From Escherichia coli (GTDB lineage Bacteria; Pseudomonadota; Gammaproteobacteria; Enterobacterales; Enterobacteriaceae): DNA of 64,000 nucleotides. The DNA is taken from assembly GCF_029227855.1 (NCBI RefSeq), contig NZ_CP074356.1; one strand, given 5' to 3'. Below the pieces are notes generated by a model. That model saw only the letters and a program-made list of their open reading frames with translations, did not search any database and was not told the DNA's origin. The translations under genes and the position numbers were made by a program. Below, piece by piece: positions 20,373 to 42,850 of the stretch (its first letter is position 1; each line of letters starts with the position of its first letter).

Positions 20373-21062
20373 TTACAGGTTAAATTCAGGGAGACATATG
20401 TTTTTTTCATCATGTCTATATTTGTCTATGGCAAGTGATATATCCTTGTAATATAAGGTGTGATTATTCCTCCCAAAGTAAATGGCCTCATCGCAATATT
20501 CTTTTAATAAGTTAAGACTATGAGAGACTATCAAAAAATTTGATTTTTCATGTTTTTCCCTAAATAAGGAAAAACATTTCTCTTTAAATCTGGCGTCTCC
20601 CACAGCCATAACTTCATCAACAAGATAATAATCAAAATCAAATGCCATGCTGAGTCCAAATCCTAACCGAGAACGCATGCCAGAAGAATATGTTTTTATT
20701 GGCATGTCAAAGTATTTCCCCAGTTCGGAAAATTCCTCTACAAATGAAACCTTATCTTGCAGCTCATCTTTTTTAGCATAAAGTCTTGCAACAAATTTAA
20801 CATTTTCACGCCCTGTCAGACTGCCTTGAAAACCACCAGCTAAACCTACTGGCCATGAAATGGTTTGATCAGTAAGTATTCTCCCCTTATCTGGTCGATC
20901 TATACCACCTATTATTCGAAGCAATGTTGATTTACCTGCACCATTGCGTCCAACTAAAGCAACACTTTTTCCTGTGGGTAATTCAATATTTAAATCTTTA
21001 AAAACATAATGTCTTCCTTTAGGTGTACGATATGATTTGGTGAGATTCTCAATACGTATCAT
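20373..21062 (-). CDS. kpsT: capsule polysaccharide export ABC transporter ATP-binding protein KpsT
   Basis: Walker A GRNGAGKST, ABC signature YSSGMRSRL, Walker B DYYLVDE; start placed at MIRIENLTK, overlapping the kpsM stop (ATGA). Confidence 0.9.
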   Translation of the reverse strand: MIRIENLTKSYRTPKGRHYVFKDLNIELPTGKSVALVGRNGAGKSTLLRIIGGIDRPDKGRILTDQTISWPVGLAGGFQGSLTGRENVKFVARLYAKKDELQDKVSFVEEFSELGKYFDMPIKTYSSGMRSRLGFGLSMAFDFDYYLVDEVMAVGDARFKEKCFSLFREKHEKSNFLIVSHSLNLLKEYCDEAIYFGRNNHTLYYKDISLAIDKYRHDEKNICLPEFNL

Positions 21063-21838
21063 GAGGTTAACATAGCCTCCTCTTTGAAACGGTAAAGGCA
21101 AAGTCCTACGAAAAACACTACTAAAGAAAAAAATGCAAGATAATTAATACTAACACCTTCACTTATATATCCCGGTACAACAGATTGGCGACTTAACTCC
21201 ACAACATGTACTAAAGGATTCCATAATAAATATCCCCAGTATATTTTAGGGATAGAATGGAGAGGAAACATTACGCAAGATATGAAATAAAGAGGTTTAA
21301 TCATTATGGGCAAAAATTTTTCCGTTTCTGGGAAAGTTTTACCTAACACCATGAAAATTAAACCTATACCAAGAGAAAATATAATAAGTAATCCCCAAGT
21401 TGCAGCGAGTATAATGATGTTTAAAAATGAAAATTCTTCTCCAAGTAGACCTACAATTGACATGAGGATTATGTAAACACCACTATATATTAATGCTTCA
21501 AGAAGGGTTCGTGAAATTATGGTGTCAATAGGCTTTATAGGCCTGTAATTAAATAAGCCCTGATTAGAGTTTATTGCTCCAATAGAGCGGACAGCAATAT
21601 TACTAAAAAGAAAATAAGGGATAAGTCCGTTTAGAAGAAACACTGGGAACGATATATCTGGCATAGTTCTATGCATAATATATCCAAATATACCAATCAA
21701 GATTATCAAATGTGCTGTTGGCTCAAGGAGTGCCCATAAATACCCCAGACGATATTTACCAAAACGAGTCTTAATTTCACGAAGAAATAAAGCTTTTACT
21801 GCTGCTATTTGAACTTCAAAACCACTTCTTCTAGCCAT
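21059..21838 (-). CDS. kpsM: capsule polysaccharide export ABC transporter permease KpsM
   Basis: Start at internal Met (MARRSGFEVQ...), giving about 259 aa with six hydrophobic segments and the characteristic C-terminus ...EEAMLTS. Confidence 0.9.
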   Translation of the reverse strand: MARRSGFEVQIAAVKALFLREIKTRFGKYRLGYLWALLEPTAHLIILIGIFGYIMHRTMPDISFPVFLLNGLIPYFLFSNIAVRSIGAINSNQGLFNYRPIKPIDTIISRTLLEALIYSGVYIILMSIVGLLGEEFSFLNIIILAATWGLLIIFSLGIGLIFMVLGKTFPETEKFLPIMIKPLYFISCVMFPLHSIPKIYWGYLLWNPLVHVVELSRQSVVPGYISEGVSINYLAFFSLVVFFVGLCLYRFKEEAMLTS

Positions 21839-21865
21839 TTGAGATATAACCTTAATATATTTTGG

Positions 21866-21877
21866 TACGCTACCGCC
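21866..21877 (-). promoter_or_regulatory. ops (RfaH-loading) element in the kpsM leader
   Basis: Minus-strand sequence GGCGGTAGCGTA about 30 nt upstream of the kpsM ATG; matches the GGCGGTAGnnT ops core found in JUMPstart leaders. Confidence 0.6.
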
Positions 21878-22247
21878 CTTGGCTCTAGCTACCAGCATGC
21901 TCGGGCGTACCATATGAGACAAACCAGAATGGACAGATAAATATTTCGTCTGGTATTAGTTTGTCTTTTCTTTACGAAAATACTTATAGATTGGACAATG
22001 AAAAATTTGGTTTAAGGCAGTCCAACCTATGTAATGTTATTGAAACATCCTGCTAATAATCTTAAATTTAATGTTTCATTAAGTTCTATCAATTTAAACA
22101 CATTGATTTGCGAATTCTATCATTTAGACTTACAGATAACTCCAGTGTTTAATATGTAAACATGCCTCATAAATTGCAAGGTAGATTGCAGGTTGCTAAT
22201 CTTTTGTTACTTATATAAAATCTGTTTTGTTTATTTTATATCAAATT

Positions 22248-23480
22248 TTATTTATTGTTCAATGCAGAATTGGTTTCTAATGTAATAGTGTCGCAGTGTA
22301 ACTGTGACTCCCCATAATAAACCCCATTAACCTGCGTCTTCACCAATAAATACCCCCGAAACTTCTTAAACAGTTTCATATCCGGTTTAAAATCGGCCTG
22401 CCAGAACTGGTGCAAATGCCCTTGATACGTCAAGCCTTTGATGTCGTACAGGGCATTGCCCATCACTTTGAGTGGTTTGTTATGAATCAGCGCAGAGATC
22501 CCCGCCGTACTGTTAATCGTCACTACCGCTTTTGCATGGCGTAATAATTCCGGCATCGGGAGATCGTGCACATAAATGACTCGCTCATCTAAGCCATATT
22601 CCTTACTCAATCGCTTAATTAATGGTCGATAGAGTCTGTGACCACGATCCATCGGATGATGTTTGATCACCAAATAACTTTCTTTCGGCGCTTTACGTGA
22701 AAATGAGTACATGACTTCATTAATATAGTCACGCACATCGTTATAATTACTGTGGTTACGAATCTGGCTATCGTTATATACCTGCAAAACGGCAAGATAA
22801 TAACGCTGGTCCAGCTCGTTCATTAACCTCGGTAATACCTTACGCTGTGTTACCTTGTAAAGTTGCTTGCGCCAGTATGCACGAACCCAGCAACGAGCCT
22901 CATACCAGGGGGAAAACGATTTATGGTGGCGGTAGCGAGGGAACTCATGGCGGTAATGCCAGCCCATCAGGTAATACCACATCGCATGACCTATACGTTT
23001 CATCGTTGAAGGTTTAAAGTTCTCAACGTGCGGCGTAGGCATATCTGGTAACTTACGATAAAAATCCGGATCGCGCGGTAGCGATGAATATGCGTTTACT
23101 CCGCCTTCTTCAACGGTAATAAATTGCGGGCGTAAATATCCTTCCTCAAATGCCAGAAAGCGGATCCCTTTCGACTTTGCCCAACGTTTTGCTTCTTTGT
23201 GCAATGGGCGGCAGTCACCAAAGCAGAGGATGGTATCAAAGTCATATTGCCGGTGGAGATCCCGTAACCATCCGGGGAACTCTTTCGGCGTTTGGTAGTA
23301 AGCCAGGTATTGTCGATGGCGGCAGTAAAAACGATCCCCACCGTTGAATACAACATTCACAGCGTTACGTCCTAATGACTCTAACCATTCGGCGACGTCA
23401 TTGAAAAAAGGTCCCATCGGCCCCTGCAATAGCAGATATTTTTTACCGGATAATAAAACGGTTAGAGCATTACCTTGCAT
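22248..23480 (-). CDS. kpsS: capsule biosynthesis protein KpsS (beta-Kdo transferase that starts the glycolipid linker)
   Basis: 410 aa ORF following kpsC, with conserved KpsS-type motifs (TINSTAGISALIHNKPL). Confidence 0.9.
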   Translation of the reverse strand: MQGNALTVLLSGKKYLLLQGPMGPFFNDVAEWLESLGRNAVNVVFNGGDRFYCRHRQYLAYYQTPKEFPGWLRDLHRQYDFDTILCFGDCRPLHKEAKRWAKSKGIRFLAFEEGYLRPQFITVEEGGVNAYSSLPRDPDFYRKLPDMPTPHVENFKPSTMKRIGHAMWYYLMGWHYRHEFPRYRHHKSFSPWYEARCWVRAYWRKQLYKVTQRKVLPRLMNELDQRYYLAVLQVYNDSQIRNHSNYNDVRDYINEVMYSFSRKAPKESYLVIKHHPMDRGHRLYRPLIKRLSKEYGLDERVIYVHDLPMPELLRHAKAVVTINSTAGISALIHNKPLKVMGNALYDIKGLTYQGHLHQFWQADFKPDMKLFKKFRGYLLVKTQVNGVYYGESQLHCDTITLETNSALNNK

Positions 23481-23514
23481 AAATAATTTCCGTAATAGTC
23501 AACTATGAAATTGT

Positions 23515-25542
23515 TTAGCCAAATCTGACCTTGCAGAACATAATTAATTTGCGGTAATAACGTATTACTCGCCCCGCTTTTTTTCTGGTAATAAACAACG
23601 GCTTGCGCGGCGTCTGGATCAAATATTCCGCCGCCTCTTCAACCGTAATAGGTTGTAGCCGTGTTGGGTGGATATAGGTTGGATAAACAATCAACGCCTG
23701 ATAGATCAAATCTGCTAACGTTAATTTTTGCTCGCGGCGCGGGCAGTGATGTTCATCAACGGTTAAACCCCAACCGGCATAGAAGGGCAGGCCGTAACAA
23801 TGAACTTGCTTGCCATGTAATAACGCTTCAAACCCGGACAATGATGTCATGGTGTGCACTTCATCTGCGCGCTGAATGCATTGAATAATATCTGCGTCCA
23901 GTGCCTGATAATCAGCGAGTTCAGCAATTAGTTCTGCCGGAATGTCGCCCTTGCGATTCCCCACCAGTACATCCGGGTGCGGTTTATAAACAATGTAGGC
24001 GTGCGGATTACGCTCGCGTACTGTGCGTAATAACTCAAGGTTGCTCTTAATCGAGACAGTGCCTGTTTTAATAGAGGCATCGTCCTCTACCTGACCCGGC
24101 ACCAGGATAACTTTTTTATCTTTGGCTTCGGCTGGTAGAGAGAAATTGGCTCCCAGGTTGTACTTACTCAGTTTGCTTTCAACCAGTCGCTGGCGTAATT
24201 TTTCAGCTCGCATCTGCTGCGCCAGCGTTAACTGGCTGTGATTAAGCAGGACTTCCAGGTCGCTGGGGCGCGTGGCGTCATAGTAGATCCCGCGTTTATC
24301 CAGTACCAACGATAGCGGCGGCAGCAGGTCAGAGCCAAGTCCGGATGAACGCAGAAAACCATCTTCCATTCGCCATAACGGCAGTGATTTTTGTTGCGCT
24401 TCGGCTAGCCATTGCTGTTCTCCCTTTACACCCCATACCACGCAAGCCGTCGCCGCAGTACAGCGGCGTGAATAACTCAGTCTGTTTGTTGCGGTACGCA
24501 AGAAAGGTTTCAGGATTGCCGACTTCCACAGCGTTAAGCCTGGCGACCATAAATAGCCATTACGCTGTTGCTGATGGTTGCGCTGTAATTGCAGCCATTG
24601 CAGTACGGTAAACAGATCGCTTGCGGCCCCCGTGAGCGGGTCGATATAGCGACAGTAACGCAGGTATGCAGCGGCAAAAAGTTCTTCCAGCGTGGCAGAA
24701 CCGCGTCGGGCAGATAACAAAGCGGACTGCGGATGGCGATCGTCGGTTAAGCCCCAGCCTGCATACCAGGGCTGGCCGAAACATGTTACTGGTTTTCCTG
24801 CCAGCAAGGCTTCAAAGCCGTATTGGGATGTCACGACGTAAACCCGGGAAACGTGTCGCAACAGCGACTGCGGGCTGACATTCTCGGCAATCAAACGTAC
24901 TCGTTGCGTGGCGCGCAGATCAGCGAAATAACCTGTTTTCTTTCCTTCCAGGACATCCGGATGCACCTTCACCCAAATTTCGGCTTGAGGATTTTCCGCC
25001 ATCGCGGCTTCCAGCATGGCAGCAAACTCATGCGGGCCAGCATTGCCATACGTCACTGACATATCATTAAATGTCTGATCGACAACCAGAACGATGTCTG
25101 AACGTTCTGACTCATCAGCCACAAACGCAGGTGCCAGGTTATATTTCGACAAATCCCCGGTCACGATGGTGTGCATCGCTTCTCTGGCCAGGCTTATCAG
25201 AGCTGTATTTCCGGCTTTATCCTGTACCAGTTTCTCCAGTGCTGAAGGCTTGCTGGCATCGTAGTAAATGCCACAATCATCCACCACCAGAGAAAGCGGC
25301 GGCTCGCCATTGACGCCAAGATCCAGCGAACGCACAAATCCATCTTCCAGACGAATGACGGGTTTTCCCGCTGCTTTGGCGATGGCGACTGGTTTCGCCG
25401 CGCTGGGACGATGTCCCCACACGGCGATAGCATCAACTTCTTGTGGAACAGGGCGCAGCAGAGAAAGTTTCTGGCACGGTTGCGCCAGAAATTTCTCCAG
25501 ATGCGGAATACGCCAGATACCGGACGAGAAAATGCCAATCAT
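23515..25542 (-). CDS. kpsC: capsule biosynthesis protein KpsC (dual-module beta-Kdo transferase)
   Basis: 675 aa with two repeated modules each containing EDGF[VL]RS...GFEALL...FYAGWGLT; overlaps kpsU stop. Confidence 0.9.
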
Positions 25543-26279
25543 GCGTTTTCAGCCAGTTCCTGTGCCATCAGGGCGCGCACTTTTTCCAGGCATGCTGGGG
25601 TGTCGACGCCCGGACCGGTTGCGGCAACCTCAAATGTGCGGATGTTGATCCCCGCGCTCATCAACCGCAGCTGCTCCAGTGATTCTGCCTGCTCCGGCAT
25701 GGACTCCGGTAACTGGCTGTAGTTTTGCAGCACATCACGACGATAAGCATAAATACCGACGTGTTTCAGGTAGCGCGCTTTTTCAGCATTACGCGGATAC
25801 GGAATCGGCGAACGGCTGAAATAAAGTGCATCCTGGCGGGTATTCACAACCACTTTTACCGTGCTTGGCTCGGCCGCTTCTTCGGCAGAAATCGCGTGGC
25901 ATAGCGTTGCCACTGGCAACGCGGGATCGTCACGCATTCCTTGTAGCAGCGTTTCTACATCCCGCGGGCGAATCATTGGTTCATCGCCCTGCAAGTTAAT
26001 GTAGATATCTGCTTCCACCGTATGCATTACCTCGACCAGCCGATCGGTGCCGGATTCATGATCGTTGCGCGTCATGATGGCTTTCCCGCCAAATGCCTGC
26101 ACGGCCTTTTCAACACGCGGGTCGTCTGTTGCCACCCAAACTTCCGCAACGCCCGCCACCTGTAACGCACGCTCGTAAACATGCTGGATCATCGGTTTAC
26201 CAACAATATCGAGCAGTGGCTTACCCGGCAGACGCGATGAGCCATAACGAGCCGGGATGACAATAACAGCTTTGCTCAT
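25539..26279 (-). CDS. kpsU: CMP-Kdo synthetase KpsU
   Basis: 246 aa; N-terminal [22 protein letters not shown] nucleotide-binding motif of KdsB-family cytidylyltransferases. Confidence 0.9.
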
Positions 26280-26288
26280 TTCAACTCC

Positions 26289-27968
26289 TTACAAAGACAG
26301 AATCACTTTTGCACCCACCGCCAGCTGATAGAGGATGGTGGAAATACCACGGGTAACTTCAATATTTTTCGATTCATATTTCGGTAGAACCATAATCTCA
26401 TCGCCCGGCTTGAGTGAATCCACGTCTTCTGCGTTGACGGCTGCACCGTTCTGACGAATGACGATAATTCTGGCGTTACCCGATTTCTGCGTCAGGCCAC
26501 CACATTTCTCGATGTAATCCTCGGTGGTCATACCCTTCTGCCAGCTCACCGCGTTCGGGAACAGCACTTCGCCATGAACCATAACCAGCGATGTTTTCTC
26601 CGGAATATTGATGACGTCGCCATCTTCAAGCAGAACAGAATCAATATTGGATTCGTTGAGGATCACTTCACCTTTCGGAACCACGGTGCGTGCTTTCGCC
26701 ACAAAGCGGCTGATCAGTTGTGCTTCCTGCATTCGCAGGCTGGCTTCTTCTTTGGTGGATGACTGGGCAGAAAGTGAGGCTTCCTCCAGTTTTTGCAGCG
26801 AGAGATTCAGCATCTCTTTCTGACGCTGAGCTACTGATGGGCGATAAAGCTGAACCGCGTTCATCTGCGACATGCTGTTCGGGCGGACTTTTTCCAGAAC
26901 CGCACGCATAGTGGAACCATAAGGCAGTACCATGGCATGTTCACCGGAGTGCGCGCCTTCAACCCGCACCTGAATGGTGCCGGCATAGCGGTCAGTGCTC
27001 ACGATTAAGGTATCGCCATTTTGCAACATACGGCCTGGTGCAGAACTGATCGGATAGTATTCGCTGCGTTTTTGCAGCCCCTGTTTACGCATAATCGTAA
27101 TGTGAGTCGCGCCAGGCTTAGGGCGCGCCCAGCTCAACGCTTCCGTTACGGGAATGCTGCTTTCGCGGAACTCAAAGTCGTAGCTGTTAAAGACATCGCC
27201 CTGAACGCTGAAAGTATGCTGACGCGGCCCGACGATGATGGTGTCACCATCGGCGAACTGCGAAAGCCCCAGTTTGCCGTTCAGCAGGAAGTCGTACAGG
27301 TTGACGTTGGAGCGCACGCGGTTACCGCGCTTGACCACAATATCAACGTAACTTCCGCGCTCTGGATCAACGCCGCCAGCCTTGATCAGATAATTGAGTA
27401 ACGAATCAGACGTCACACCGCCATACAGACCAGGATTACGCACAAATCCGGTCACGTACACTTTTACTGGCTGCGCCTGTAATAAGGAGGCGTAGACGTT
27501 GACGTTGGACTGGTACACTTCCTTCACTTTTGATGTAACCAGAGTGTTCAACTGACTATTGCTAACCCCGGCAACTTTCACCGGACCAACGTTTGGCAGA
27601 AAAATATTACCTTTGGGATCAATCTGTAATGCACCATCAAAGGTGAACGCACCCCACAAGCGAACCTGAATGCTATCACCCGGATTCAGAATATAGTCAG
27701 GGTTGAATCCTACCGTCGCACCGCTATCCGCGCTGGTGCCGTTGAAAAGTTGAGCACCAAACATACGGCTCATTACCACCGGCGGTGCGGGGGGTGGAGT
27801 ATTGTCGAAGCCGCTCATGTTTTGCGTATCCGACTGTTGCCCGTTCAGAATACCGGTAAGCGGCGCGGCTCCTGTCAGGTTTGGGTCAGCGTTAATATCA
27901 ATGGCCGCGCTGGCCTGCGCCGCGTGACAGGCGGCAATCAGTAAAATTGATTTAAATAATTTCATCAC
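26289..27968 (-). CDS. kpsD: capsule export periplasmic/outer-membrane protein KpsD
   Basis: 559 aa with signal peptide (MMKLFKSILLIAACHAAQA); conserved position between kpsE and kpsU. Confidence 0.9.
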   Translation of the reverse strand: MMKLFKSILLIAACHAAQASAAIDINADPNLTGAAPLTGILNGQQSDTQNMSGFDNTPPPAPPVVMSRMFGAQLFNGTSADSGATVGFNPDYILNPGDSIQVRLWGAFTFDGALQIDPKGNIFLPNVGPVKVAGVSNSQLNTLVTSKVKEVYQSNVNVYASLLQAQPVKVYVTGFVRNPGLYGGVTSDSLLNYLIKAGGVDPERGSYVDIVVKRGNRVRSNVNLYDFLLNGKLGLSQFADGDTIIVGPRQHTFSVQGDVFNSYDFEFRESSIPVTEALSWARPKPGATHITIMRKQGLQKRSEYYPISSAPGRMLQNGDTLIVSTDRYAGTIQVRVEGAHSGEHAMVLPYGSTMRAVLEKVRPNSMSQMNAVQLYRPSVAQRQKEMLNLSLQKLEEASLSAQSSTKEEASLRMQEAQLISRFVAKARTVVPKGEVILNESNIDSVLLEDGDVINIPEKTSLVMVHGEVLFPNAVSWQKGMTTEDYIEKCGGLTQKSGNARIIVIRQNGAAVNAEDVDSLKPGDEIMVLPKYESKNIEVTRGISTILYQLAVGAKVILSL

Positions 27969-40039: not shown

Positions 40040-40135
<96 letters not shown>

Positions 40136-40197
40136 TGTACTTTGTTATCAATCTGGGGCCAGCAAATGCTGGCCTGATTTGTTCTTGAGGGAAGACT

Positions 40198-40917
40198 ATG
40201 ATGCGCAAAATGCTGCTGGCGGCAGCACTTTCAGTGACGGCAATGACCGCTCACGCCGACTACCAGTGCAGCGTCACGCCGCGTGACGATGTGATTGTCA
40301 GCCCGCAAACCGTGCAGGTGAAGGGCGAAAACGGCAATCTGGTGATCACGCCAGACGGCAACGTGATGTATAACGGTAAGCAATATTCCCTGAACGCCGC
40401 CCAGCGCGAGCAGGCGAAGGATTATCAGGCTGAACTGCGTAGCACCCTGCCGTGGATTGATGAAGGCGCGAAAAGCCGCGTCGAGAAAGCCCGTATTGCG
40501 CTGGATAAAATTATCGTTCAGGAGATGGGCGAAAGCAGCAAAATGCGCAGCCGTCTGACCAAACTTGATGCGCAGCTGAAAGAGCAGATGAACCGCATTA
40601 TCGAAACGCGCAGCGATGGCCTGACGTTTCACTATAAAGCCATTGATCAGGTTCGCGCCGAAGGCCAGCAATTAGTGAATCAGGCAATGGGCGGAATTTT
40701 ACAGGACAGCATTAATGAAATGGGCGCGAAAGCGGTGCTGAAAAGCGGTGGTAACCCATTACAGAATGTGCTGGGAAGCCTGGGCGGTCTGCAATCCTCA
40801 ATCCAAACCGAATGGAAAAAGCAGGAAAAAGATTTCCAGCAGTTTGGCAAAGATGTTTGTAGCCGCGTTGTGACTCTGGAAGATAGTCGCAAAGCCCTGG
40901 TCGGGAATTTAAAATAA
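40198..40917 (+). CDS. yggN: DUF2884 periplasmic protein YggN
   Basis: 239 aa with signal peptide; conserved position. Confidence 0.85.
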   Translation: MMRKMLLAAALSVTAMTAHADYQCSVTPRDDVIVSPQTVQVKGENGNLVITPDGNVMYNGKQYSLNAAQREQAKDYQAELRSTLPWIDEGAKSRVEKARIALDKIIVQEMGESSKMRSRLTKLDAQLKEQMNRIIETRSDGLTFHYKAIDQVRAEGQQLVNQAMGGILQDSINEMGAKAVLKSGGNPLQNVLGSLGGLQSSIQTEWKKQEKDFQQFGKDVCSRVVTLEDSRKALVGNLK

Positions 40918-40932
40918 TCCTCTATTTTAAGA

Positions 40933-40957
40933 CGGCATAATACTTTTTTATGCCGTT
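40933..40957 (+). terminator. hairpin downstream of yggN (probable terminator)
   Basis: acggcataa / ttatgccgt stem with T-rich loop and tail. Confidence 0.5.
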
Positions 40958-40959
40958 TA

Positions 40960-41670
40960 ATTGTGCACAGAAAACCCCCAGCTAGGCTGGGGGTTCCGGA
41001 AAGCTTTCAGCTTTGAGCCAGTTATTAAAACCCCTTTTGATTTGTTAAAACACTTTGCGGTCTGGCAACTGCAAGTGTCAAACAAGAAATCAAAAGGGGG
41101 TCCCAATGGGGAACGAAAAGAGCTTAGCGCACACCCGATGGAACTGTAAATATCACATAGTTTTTGCGCCAAAATACCGAAGACAGGTGTTCTACAGAGA
41201 GAAGCGTAGAGCAATAGGCAGTATTTTGAGAAAGCTGTGTGAGTGGAAAAGCGTACGGATTCTGGAAGCTGAATGCTGTGCAGATCATATCCATATGCTT
41301 GTGGAGATCCCGCCCAAAATGAGCGTATCCGGGTTTATGGGATATCTGAAAGGGAAAAGCAGTCTGATGCTTTACGAGCAGTTTGGTGATTTGAAATTCA
41401 AATACAGGAACAGGGAGTTCTGGTGCAGAGGGTACTACGTCGATACAGTGGGTAAGAACACGGCGAAGATACAGGATTACATAAAGCACCAGCTTGAAGA
41501 GGATAAAATGGGAGAGCAGTTATCGATTCCCTATCCGGGCAGCCCGTTTACGGGCCGTAAGTAACGAAGTTGGATGCAAATGTCAGATCGTGTGCGCCTG
41601 TTAGGGCGCGGCTGGTAAGAGAGCCTTATAGGCGCATTTGAAAAACCTCCGGCTATGCCGGAGGATATTT
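40960..41670 (+). mobile_element. IS200 insertion sequence (IS200/IS605 family); ends approximate
   Basis: Left-end perfect palindrome aaacccccagc ta gctgggggtt and second RBS-sequestering stem-loop (ccccttttgatt...aatcaaaagggg) upstream of tnpA; total size about 0.7 kb fits IS200. Confidence 0.7.
41106..41564 (+). CDS. tnpA: IS200 transposase TnpA (Y1 HUH transposase)
   Basis: 152 aa; HUH motif HIHML and catalytic Tyr region (FWCRGYYVDTVG). Confidence 0.85.
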   Translation: MGNEKSLAHTRWNCKYHIVFAPKYRRQVFYREKRRAIGSILRKLCEWKSVRILEAECCADHIHMLVEIPPKMSVSGFMGYLKGKSSLMLYEQFGDLKFKYRNREFWCRGYYVDTVGKNTAKIQDYIKHQLEEDKMGEQLSIPYPGSPFTGRK

Positions 41671-41803
41671 ATTCTTCGTTTTGTTACCTGCCTCTAACTT
41701 TGTAGATCTCCAAAATATATTCACGTTGTAAATTGTTTAACGTCAAATTTCCCATACAAAGCTAAGGGATAATGCGTAGCGTTCACGTAACTGGAGGAAT
41801 GAA

Positions 41804-42850
41804 ATGGAGTTTTTCAAAAAGACGGCACTTGCCGCACTGGTTATGGGTTTTAGTGGTGCAGCATTGGCATTACCCAATATCACCATTTTAGCAACCGGCG
41901 GGACCATTGCCGGTGGTGGTGACTCCGCAACCAAATCTAACTACACAGCGGGTAAAGTTGGCGTAGAAAATCTGGTTAATGCGGTGCCGCAACTGAAGGA
42001 CATTGCGAACGTTAAAGGCGAGCAGGTAGTGAATATCGGCTCCCAGGACATGAACGATAATGTCTGGCTGACACTGGCGAAAAAAATTAACACCGACTGC
42101 GATAAAACCGACGGCTTCGTCATTACCCACGGTACCGACACGATGGAAGAAACCGCTTACTTCCTCGACCTGACGGTGAAATGCGACAAACCGGTGGTGA
42201 TGGTCGGCGCAATGCGCCCGTCCACGTCCATGAGCGCAGACGGTCCATTCAACCTGTATAACGCGGTAGTGACCGCAGCTGATAAAGCCTCTGCTAATCG
42301 TGGCGTGCTGGTGGTGATGAACGACACCGTACTGGACGGTCGCGATGTCACCAAAACCAACACCACCGACGTAGCGACCTTCAAGTCTGTTAACTACGGT
42401 CCTCTGGGTTACATTCACAACGGTAAGATTGACTACCAACGTACCCCGGCACGTAAGCATACCAGCGACACGCCGTTCGATGTCTCTAAGCTGAATGAAC
42501 TGCCGAAAGTCGGCATTGTTTATAACTACGCTAACGCATCCGATCTTCCGGCTAAAGCACTGGTAGATGCGGGCTATGATGGCATTGTTAGCGCTGGTGT
42601 GGGTAACGGCAACCTGTATAAAACCGTATTTGACACTCTGGCGACCGCCGCGAAAAACGGCACTGCAGTCGTGCGTTCTTCCCGCGTACCGACGGGCGCT
42701 ACCACTCAGGATGCTGAAGTGGATGATGCGAAATACGGCTTCGTCGCCTCTGGCACGCTGAACCCGCAAAAAGCGCGCGTTCTGCTGCAGCTTGCTCTGA
42801 CGCAAACCAAAGATCCGCAGCAGATCCAGCAGATCTTCAATCAGTACTAA
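41804..42850 (+). CDS. ansB: periplasmic L-asparaginase II
   Basis: 348 aa with signal peptide and asparaginase signature TGGTIAG; second signature GIVITHGTDTMEETA. Confidence 0.9.
   Translation: MEFFKKTALAALVMGFSGAALALPNITILATGGTIAGGGDSATKSNYTAGKVGVENLVNAVPQLKDIANVKGEQVVNIGSQDMNDNVWLTLAKKINTDCDKTDGFVITHGTDTMEETAYFLDLTVKCDKPVVMVGAMRPSTSMSADGPFNLYNAVVTAADKASANRGVLVVMNDTVLDGRDVTKTNTTDVATFKSVNYGPLGYIHNGKIDYQRTPARKHTSDTPFDVSKLNELPKVGIVYNYANASDLPAKALVDAGYDGIVSAGVGNGNLYKTVFDTLATAAKNGTAVVRSSRVPTGATTQDAEVDDAKYGFVASGTLNPQKARVLLQLALTQTKDPQQIQQIFNQY

Follow-up and report, generated by a model that had tools for sequence, protein, structure and literature searches.

The window (the whole 64,000-nt stretch of Escherichia coli DNA that was analyzed) carries a complete copy of the insertion sequence IS200C (711 bp) between the yggN and ansB genes, and its boundaries were determined by alignment with the K-12 yggN-ansB spacer (Table 1). 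The first-pass annotation had described a complete IS200 at this place, and the left hairpin, the RBS-sequestering stem-loop and the tnpA gene on which it relied were all found within the element. Its placement between yggN and ansB was confirmed by the Pfam DUF2884 and Asparaginase domains of the flanking genes. The range given there (40960-41803) covers the IS together with the 130-nt ansB promoter and leader; the distance from the IS to the ansB start, estimated at 130-150 bp, was 130 nt when measured from the IS200C end to the ATG.

Table 1. Features of the yggN-ansB region, in window coordinates
Feature	Position	Strand	Basis and description
yggN (DUF2884)	40198-40917	+	ORF; Pfam PF11101, E = 1.5e-20; annotation
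yggN intrinsic-terminator-like hairpin and tail TTTAATT	40930-40962	+	hairpin 40930-40958; IS200C insertion target
IS200C	40963-41673	+	K-12 alignment; ends GTGCACAGAA...ATATTTATT; other copies 98-99% identical
Left-end subterminal hairpin	40973-40995	+	folding; AACCCCCAGC-TAG-GCTGGGGGTT
Rfam RF01405 STnc490 (IS200 left end / tnpA 5'UTR RNA)	40973-41096	+	full-length model match
5'UTR stem-loop	41031-41099	+	minimum-free-energy and centroid structures, z = -4.3
tnpA	41106-41564	+	152 aa; Y1 HUH transposase; WP_000526135.1
Right-end hairpin and tail	41646-41673	+	hairpin 41646-41664, then the 9-nt ATATTTATT
CRP-type 22-mer (TGTTA-N6-TCTAA core)	41679-41700	+	read from sequence; identical in K-12
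FNR-type site TTGTTTAACGTCAA	41733-41746	+	8/10 vs consensus TTGATnnnnATCAA; identical in K-12
ansB -10 element GATAAT	41768-41773	+	inferred from the spacing to the FNR-like site; start near 41781
ansB, L-asparaginase II	41804-42850	+	ORF; two Pfam Asparaginase domains; annotation

The empty spacer of K-12 reads ...TTATGCCGTTTAATT/CTTCGTTTTG..., where the slash marks the junction, and the corresponding junctions of the window read ...GCCGTTTAATT/GTGCACAGAA...GGATATTTATT/CTTCG..., that is, a simple insertion at GCCGTTTAATT/CTTCG. The junctions were read by eye and confirmed with a script; the left flank was misplaced in the MAFFT alignment of the window with K-12. Because ATT is common to both ends, the junction is ambiguous by 3 nt and the position 40960-41670 is equally possible. 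The start GTGCACAGAA and the end ATATTTATT were identical in six E. coli copies of IS200C (that of the window and five others), the flanks of which were unrelated. The right end was always ...TATT, whereas the left flank ended variably (aatt, gatt, tatt, tctt and tgtt). IS200C therefore inserts without a target-site duplication, and by this comparison the ATT shared by the two junctions was rejected as a 3-bp duplication of the target. A deletion in K-12, instead of an insertion in the window, was also rejected, given that the site is empty in 5420 of 5425 genomes and that the additional DNA is bounded by exact IS ends.

At the same place in five genomes, between yggN and ansB, RefSeq gives the label 'IS200/IS605-like element IS200C family transposase'. 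When 5426 complete E. coli genomes were searched by megablast, the internal ~730 bp recurred at many genomic places as IS200C copies with 98-99% identity. No second IS200 copy was found within the 64-kb window, where the left-end hairpin sequence occurs once. Terminal inverted repeats are absent (GTGCACAGAA and ATATTTATT are not inverted repeats of each other), and subterminal hairpins are present at both ends. The 711 bp hold a single ORF with a family match, namely tnpA, without tnpB. The element is thus an ordinary, intact and already known IS200C of the IS200 group in the IS200/IS605 family.

The left-end hairpin (-11.7 kcal/mol as ssDNA) corresponds to nt 12-34 of IS200, and the 5'UTR stem-loop, which in the predicted fold pairs into the Shine-Dalgarno sequence AAGGGGGT at 41094-41101, corresponds to nt 69-138. 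The match to STnc490 reached 144.6 bits (E = 6.7e-31) against a gathering score of 56. The TnpA protein matched Pfam PF01797 (Y1_Tnp, E = 3.8e-38) over 119 of the 121 model positions; an HUH motif in the form HIH (residues 61-63) and the catalytic Tyr125 were read from its sequence. WP_000526135.1 is the product annotated in the carrier genomes and in the other IS200C copies compared. The right-end hairpin (-10 kcal/mol as ssDNA) is terminator-like on both strands.

The published map of IS200 contains a terminator at nt 12-34, a stem-loop at nt 69-138, a weak promoter and the antisense RNA art200, and the TnpA variant Y125F is catalytically dead (PMC4513863). By analogy with IS200, where it is a bidirectional terminator, the left-end hairpin is presumed to have a role in TnpA binding as well. 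IS200C would be kept quiet by this terminator, by a weak tnpA promoter, by the 5'UTR stem-loop that hides the RBS and by an antisense/Hfq-binding RNA, as found for IS200 of Salmonella, from which the silencing is carried over here on the basis of near-identical structures. Separately, the STnc490 model was found to match the tnpA-sense strand with the left-end terminator hairpin included, whereas art200 is antisense to the tnpA 5'UTR (PMC4513863). No minus-strand STnc490 match over 40973-41096 was reported by the Rfam search, and the strand and extent of the Rfam model do not appear to correspond to those of the published art200.

Carrier genomes and the number of insertions

By megablast, the stretch 40860-41810 was found whole in only 5 of the 5426 complete E. 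coli genomes, namely MRSN346647, MLI106K1, JNEC-KY178, F5446 and GN06156. The junctions and the orientation of the IS were identical in all five. In the first three, the flanks were 100% identical to those of the window, and the empty site was found in genomes whose 4-kb flanks are 99.9% identical to the window; together with its rarity, this suggests that the copy is recent.

The other two carriers have different backgrounds. The flanks of F5446 were ~2% divergent from those of the window, with SNPs at distances of 76 bp (left side) and 83 bp (right side) from the IS; among the matches listed, all 10 genomes whose 3-kb flanks are 100% identical to F5446 had the empty site. The flanks of GN06156 were divergent by 1.2%, with 6 SNPs within the 711-bp IS, and its nearest relatives among the matches listed (99.5-99.6% identity) were all without IS200C. 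Three backgrounds, each with empty-site closest relatives, point to at least three independent insertions, and the simplest reading of these comparisons is that IS200C has entered at one nucleotide, in the same orientation, at least three times.

A single ancient insertion, which was kept by descent or spread by homologous recombination, would also give the same junctions and orientation in the five carriers, and the divergence of the IS in GN06156 (6/711) is of the same order as that of its flanks. Under descent, however, almost every one of the 5420 other genomes would have to have lost the IS, and the empty sites of the ten listed genomes with F5446-identical flanks do not fit. The IS of F5446 differs from that of the window at 1 of 711 positions beside flanks that differ by ~2%, and SNPs this close to the IS on both sides leave almost no room for an imported tract, so that a single event appears improbable. 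The ORF and both ends of the element are intact, and the three apparently separate events imply that it is active in nature. At ansB, IS200C is a rare strain polymorphism that may serve as a lineage marker.

Several other features of the surroundings were observed. The trmB-ansB region collects structure-targeting insertion sequences: IS1397 (IS3 family) was found in the same trmB-ansB stretch of E. coli WGS1363 (NZ_CP141204.1) and, given its preference for REP/BIME sequences, it may lie in a REP between yggL and yggN. A REP-like palindrome is located between these two genes in the window (40092-40140), with a sub-threshold match to Rfam naRNA4 (42.6 bits vs a gathering score of 59.5); the 46-aa 'hypothetical protein' annotated across it in some RefSeq records is probably spurious. 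Farther away, a low-GC block on the - strand (14772-27968; GC 0.34 at 16-24 kb) was recognized as a group-2-type (kps-like) capsule cluster. It encodes an epimerase, an 800-aa fusion of Capsule_synth with a GT29 sialyltransferase-like part, a GT1 enzyme, an ABC transporter pair, two Capsule_synth proteins, a CMP-sugar cytidylyltransferase and a Poly_export protein. The cluster suggests a strain background of the extraintestinal-pathogenic type.

Sequences at the left junctions of IS200-clade elements

All six E. coli copies begin at GTGCACAGAA after a flank that ends in TT. An obvious terminator was found directly 5' of four of them (those of yggN and corA, that of blaCMY-2 and one near rclA); the other two copies lie inside genes, where the hairpins are weak. 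The terminator hairpin of yggN (-8.9 kcal/mol as ssDNA, z = -5.2) is unbroken in the empty site of K-12.

A cross-species scan with the 23-nt left-end hairpin, in which each species was represented by one genome, returned 120 stretches from Y. pestis (IS1541), Vibrio, Brenneria, Dickeya, Edwardsiella and several metagenome-assembled genomes (MAGs). Nearly every left flank in these stretches consisted of a GC hairpin followed by a T-run. The flanks were scored by a terminator test with ViennaRNA (MFE <= -8 kcal/mol in the last 40 nt, >= 5 T in the last 8 nt, and the last G/C pair within 12 nt). The test was passed by 113 of 124 unique IS200-clade left junctions and by 29 of 3000 random positions from the same loci. 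The junctions came from E. coli, Y. pestis, Vibrio, Brenneria and several MAGs, with a few genomes weighing heavily in the sample (~55 sites in Y. pestis, followed by Vibrio ruber and one Bacillota MAG). A first hairpin detector had been dropped, since A-T pairs extended the stems into the T-run and just 64 of the 124 junctions were positive. The median MFE was -18.0 kcal/mol at the IS junctions and -6.3 kcal/mol at the random positions. Among the 113 passing junctions, 96 had their last paired G/C at a distance of 6-9 nt from the IS start, and the flank ended in TT at 109 of the 124. When copies of IS1541 were arranged head to tail in tandem (L073, L074, L076 and L120; Yersinia pestis NCTC5923), the second copy adjoined the right-end hairpin and tail of the preceding copy, an arrangement that fits the right end as a target mimic.

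Terminator-like sequences have been reported as enriched upstream of IS200/IS605 elements in a preprint (10.1101/2025.07.22.666184), so the association with terminators is known at least in part. The GC skew of the + strand was +0.024; given this positive value, the top strand of the IS lies on the lagging-strand template, in line with the expectation for the family (PMC6006769).

Based on these junctions, elements of the IS200 clade would insert, as seen on the tnpA strand, directly on the 3' side of a GC-rich hairpin and its short T-rich tail, the last two bases of which are TT. The target in the window would be the yggN terminator, with ansB simply the next gene. On single-stranded DNA, an intrinsic terminator would resemble the element's own right end (a hairpin followed by ATATTTATT) and could serve as a target for that reason. 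By analogy with the guide-target pairing of the family (PMC6006769), the conserved [A/C]GAA beside the left-end hairpin may pair with a TNTT target. We lean toward regarding IS200-clade elements as terminator-homing transposons, in which TnpA would take a GC hairpin with a 6-9 nt T-rich tail as a stand-in for the right end; the mimicry itself we infer from the likeness of the sequences.

If true, terminator homing would explain the hits at the same nucleotide of the yggN terminator in three E. coli lineages, the tandem IS1541 copies and the enrichment reported in the preprint. Such insertions would be well tolerated because the element lands past the transcription unit and a terminator-like end is rebuilt facing the next gene. 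If the mimicry were confirmed biochemically, target choice in the IS200 group would follow a simple rule, which would also help to explain the wide spread of the group with little harm.

As a separate observation from the scan, the exact 23-nt hairpin AACCCCCAGCTAGGCTGGGGGTT (loci L008-L127) was present in MAGs assigned to Bacillota, Peptococcaceae, Mailhella/Desulfovibrio, Oxalobacter, Elusimicrobiaceae and Saccharibacteria, and also in Vibrio and many Enterobacterales. Contamination of some of the MAG bins would be one explanation; the other is a very wide spread of this IS clade, its hairpin remaining invariant.

The ansB promoter and the effect of the insertion

The first-pass annotation had also placed the insertion close to the expected CRP/FNR-dependent promoter of ansB. 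With a transcription start inferred at ~41781, the end of IS200C lies at ~-108, 5 bp upstream of the CRP-like 22-mer, and both candidate regulatory sites are intact. From the IS to the ATG, the 130-nt sequence departs from that of K-12 at one base (A at 41759, G in K-12). The CRP-like 22-mer spans -102 to -81 (center ~-91.5) and is located 50 bp upstream of the FNR-like site, center to center. The FNR-like site TTGTTTAACGTCAA is located 21 bp upstream of GATAAT, and its center at ~-41.5 is that expected for class II. Jennings and Beacham are said to have placed, in 1993, CRP at -91.5 and FNR at -41.5 in the ansB promoter; the candidate sites of the window, which match the consensus sequences, are taken here to be those at -91.5/-41.5. 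The FNR consensus TTGATnnnnATCAA and the class II position rule were taken from the literature (PMC3688515). The sequence that separates the FNR-like site from the -10 element is naturally polymorphic, with A at 41759 (~-22) instead of the G of K-12 and, in F5446, G at 41756 (~-25).

The DNA that abuts the promoter is now the right end of the IS (a hairpin and an AT-rich tail), and the yggN terminator hairpin with its T-rich tail has been displaced; next to the junction, 5 of 9 nt match the displaced sequence. The yggN terminator is kept upstream of IS200C. In the empty site it lies at ~-140 to -112 relative to the ansB start, so ansB was already insulated from yggN and the IS hairpins are redundant in this respect. 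With the CRP site, the FNR site, the -10 element and the leader all intact, the effect on ansB would be expected to be nil or small.

An alteration of ansB regulation by IS200C could take the form of a block to read-through, a disturbance of CRP/FNR co-activation or transcription from tnpA into ansB. Such an effect is suggested by the IS end just 5 bp from the CRP-like 22-mer, by the terminator-like hairpins at both ends of IS200C and by the co-orientation of tnpA and ansB. It is nevertheless unlikely, because the recognizable promoter elements are all identical to those of K-12, the retained terminator stood between yggN and ansB even without the IS, and the weak transcript of tnpA should end at the right-end hairpin and its T-rich tail. 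Moreover, the target preference accounts for the site, and selection on ansB is not needed. A scan of 40800-41900, which also misses the activator-dependent ansB promoter, revealed no outward sigma-70-like promoter; by this weak test, a new outward or hybrid promoter at the right junction was rejected as well. A modest shift in CRP-dependent co-activation may occur, since CRP bends DNA and the sequence more than 5 bp from the 22-mer has changed.

A main role for this copy in supplying a trans-acting regulatory RNA (a 5' tnpA fragment or art200) is very improbable: nothing links such a role to the yggN-ansB location, to our knowledge IS200-derived RNAs have no known targets in E. coli, and the carrier chromosomes match the query at 8-24 places per record, mostly other IS200C copies, so that with several other copies per chromosome the one near ansB would add little RNA. 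In its favor are the full-length, high-scoring STnc490 structure and the regulation of host genes by IS200-derived RNAs of Salmonella, as described in two reports (PMC5435999; 10.1101/2024.06.26.600842).

The position of IS200C is best explained by the target preference of the element rather than by a link to ansB. We hold it to be very likely that the window carries a recent, intact IS200C whose site was set by this preference and whose effect on ansB is nil or small; from the sequence of the promoter region, the insertion is probably neutral for ansB. An IS200 copy found 'next to a promoter' is thus best read first as one lying 'after the terminator of the upstream gene', and not as a sign of selection on the downstream gene.

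Comparison with known systems

IS1397 and ISKpn1, which belong to the IS3 family and use a DDE transposase, insert into the BIME/REP extragenic hairpins. They share with IS200C the choice of structured intergenic targets at gene ends, a choice that entails low damage to the host in both cases, but they differ in transposase family and mechanism, and their targets are REP sequences and not terminators. The target of IS608 is the fixed tetranucleotide TTAC, whereas the flank of IS200C is TT after a T-rich run and a hairpin; unlike IS608 and ISDra2, IS200C has no tnpB. IS608 and ISDra2 share with IS200C the single-strand 'peel and paste' transposition, with a Y1 HUH TnpA that binds subterminal hairpins, the insertion 3' of a short target that is like the right-end cleavage site, and the bias toward the lagging-strand template (PMC6006769).

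IS200 of Salmonella enterica has the same left terminator hairpin (nt 12-34), the same stem-loop sequestering the SD sequence (nt 69-138), a single 152-aa Y1 transposase with Tyr125 and a right-end hairpin, and it likewise lacks terminal inverted repeats and a target duplication; it differs from the E. coli variant IS200C in length (707 bp vs 711 bp; PMC4513863). IS1541 of Yersinia pestis has the identical 23-nt left-end hairpin and the same right-end hairpin and tail as IS200C, and at dozens of sites its flank is a hairpin with a T-run ending in TT. It differs in its first 10 nt (GTGCCCAGAA vs GTGCACAGAA in IS200C), in its much higher copy number in Yersinia and in its tandem copies there, of which there are none in the window.
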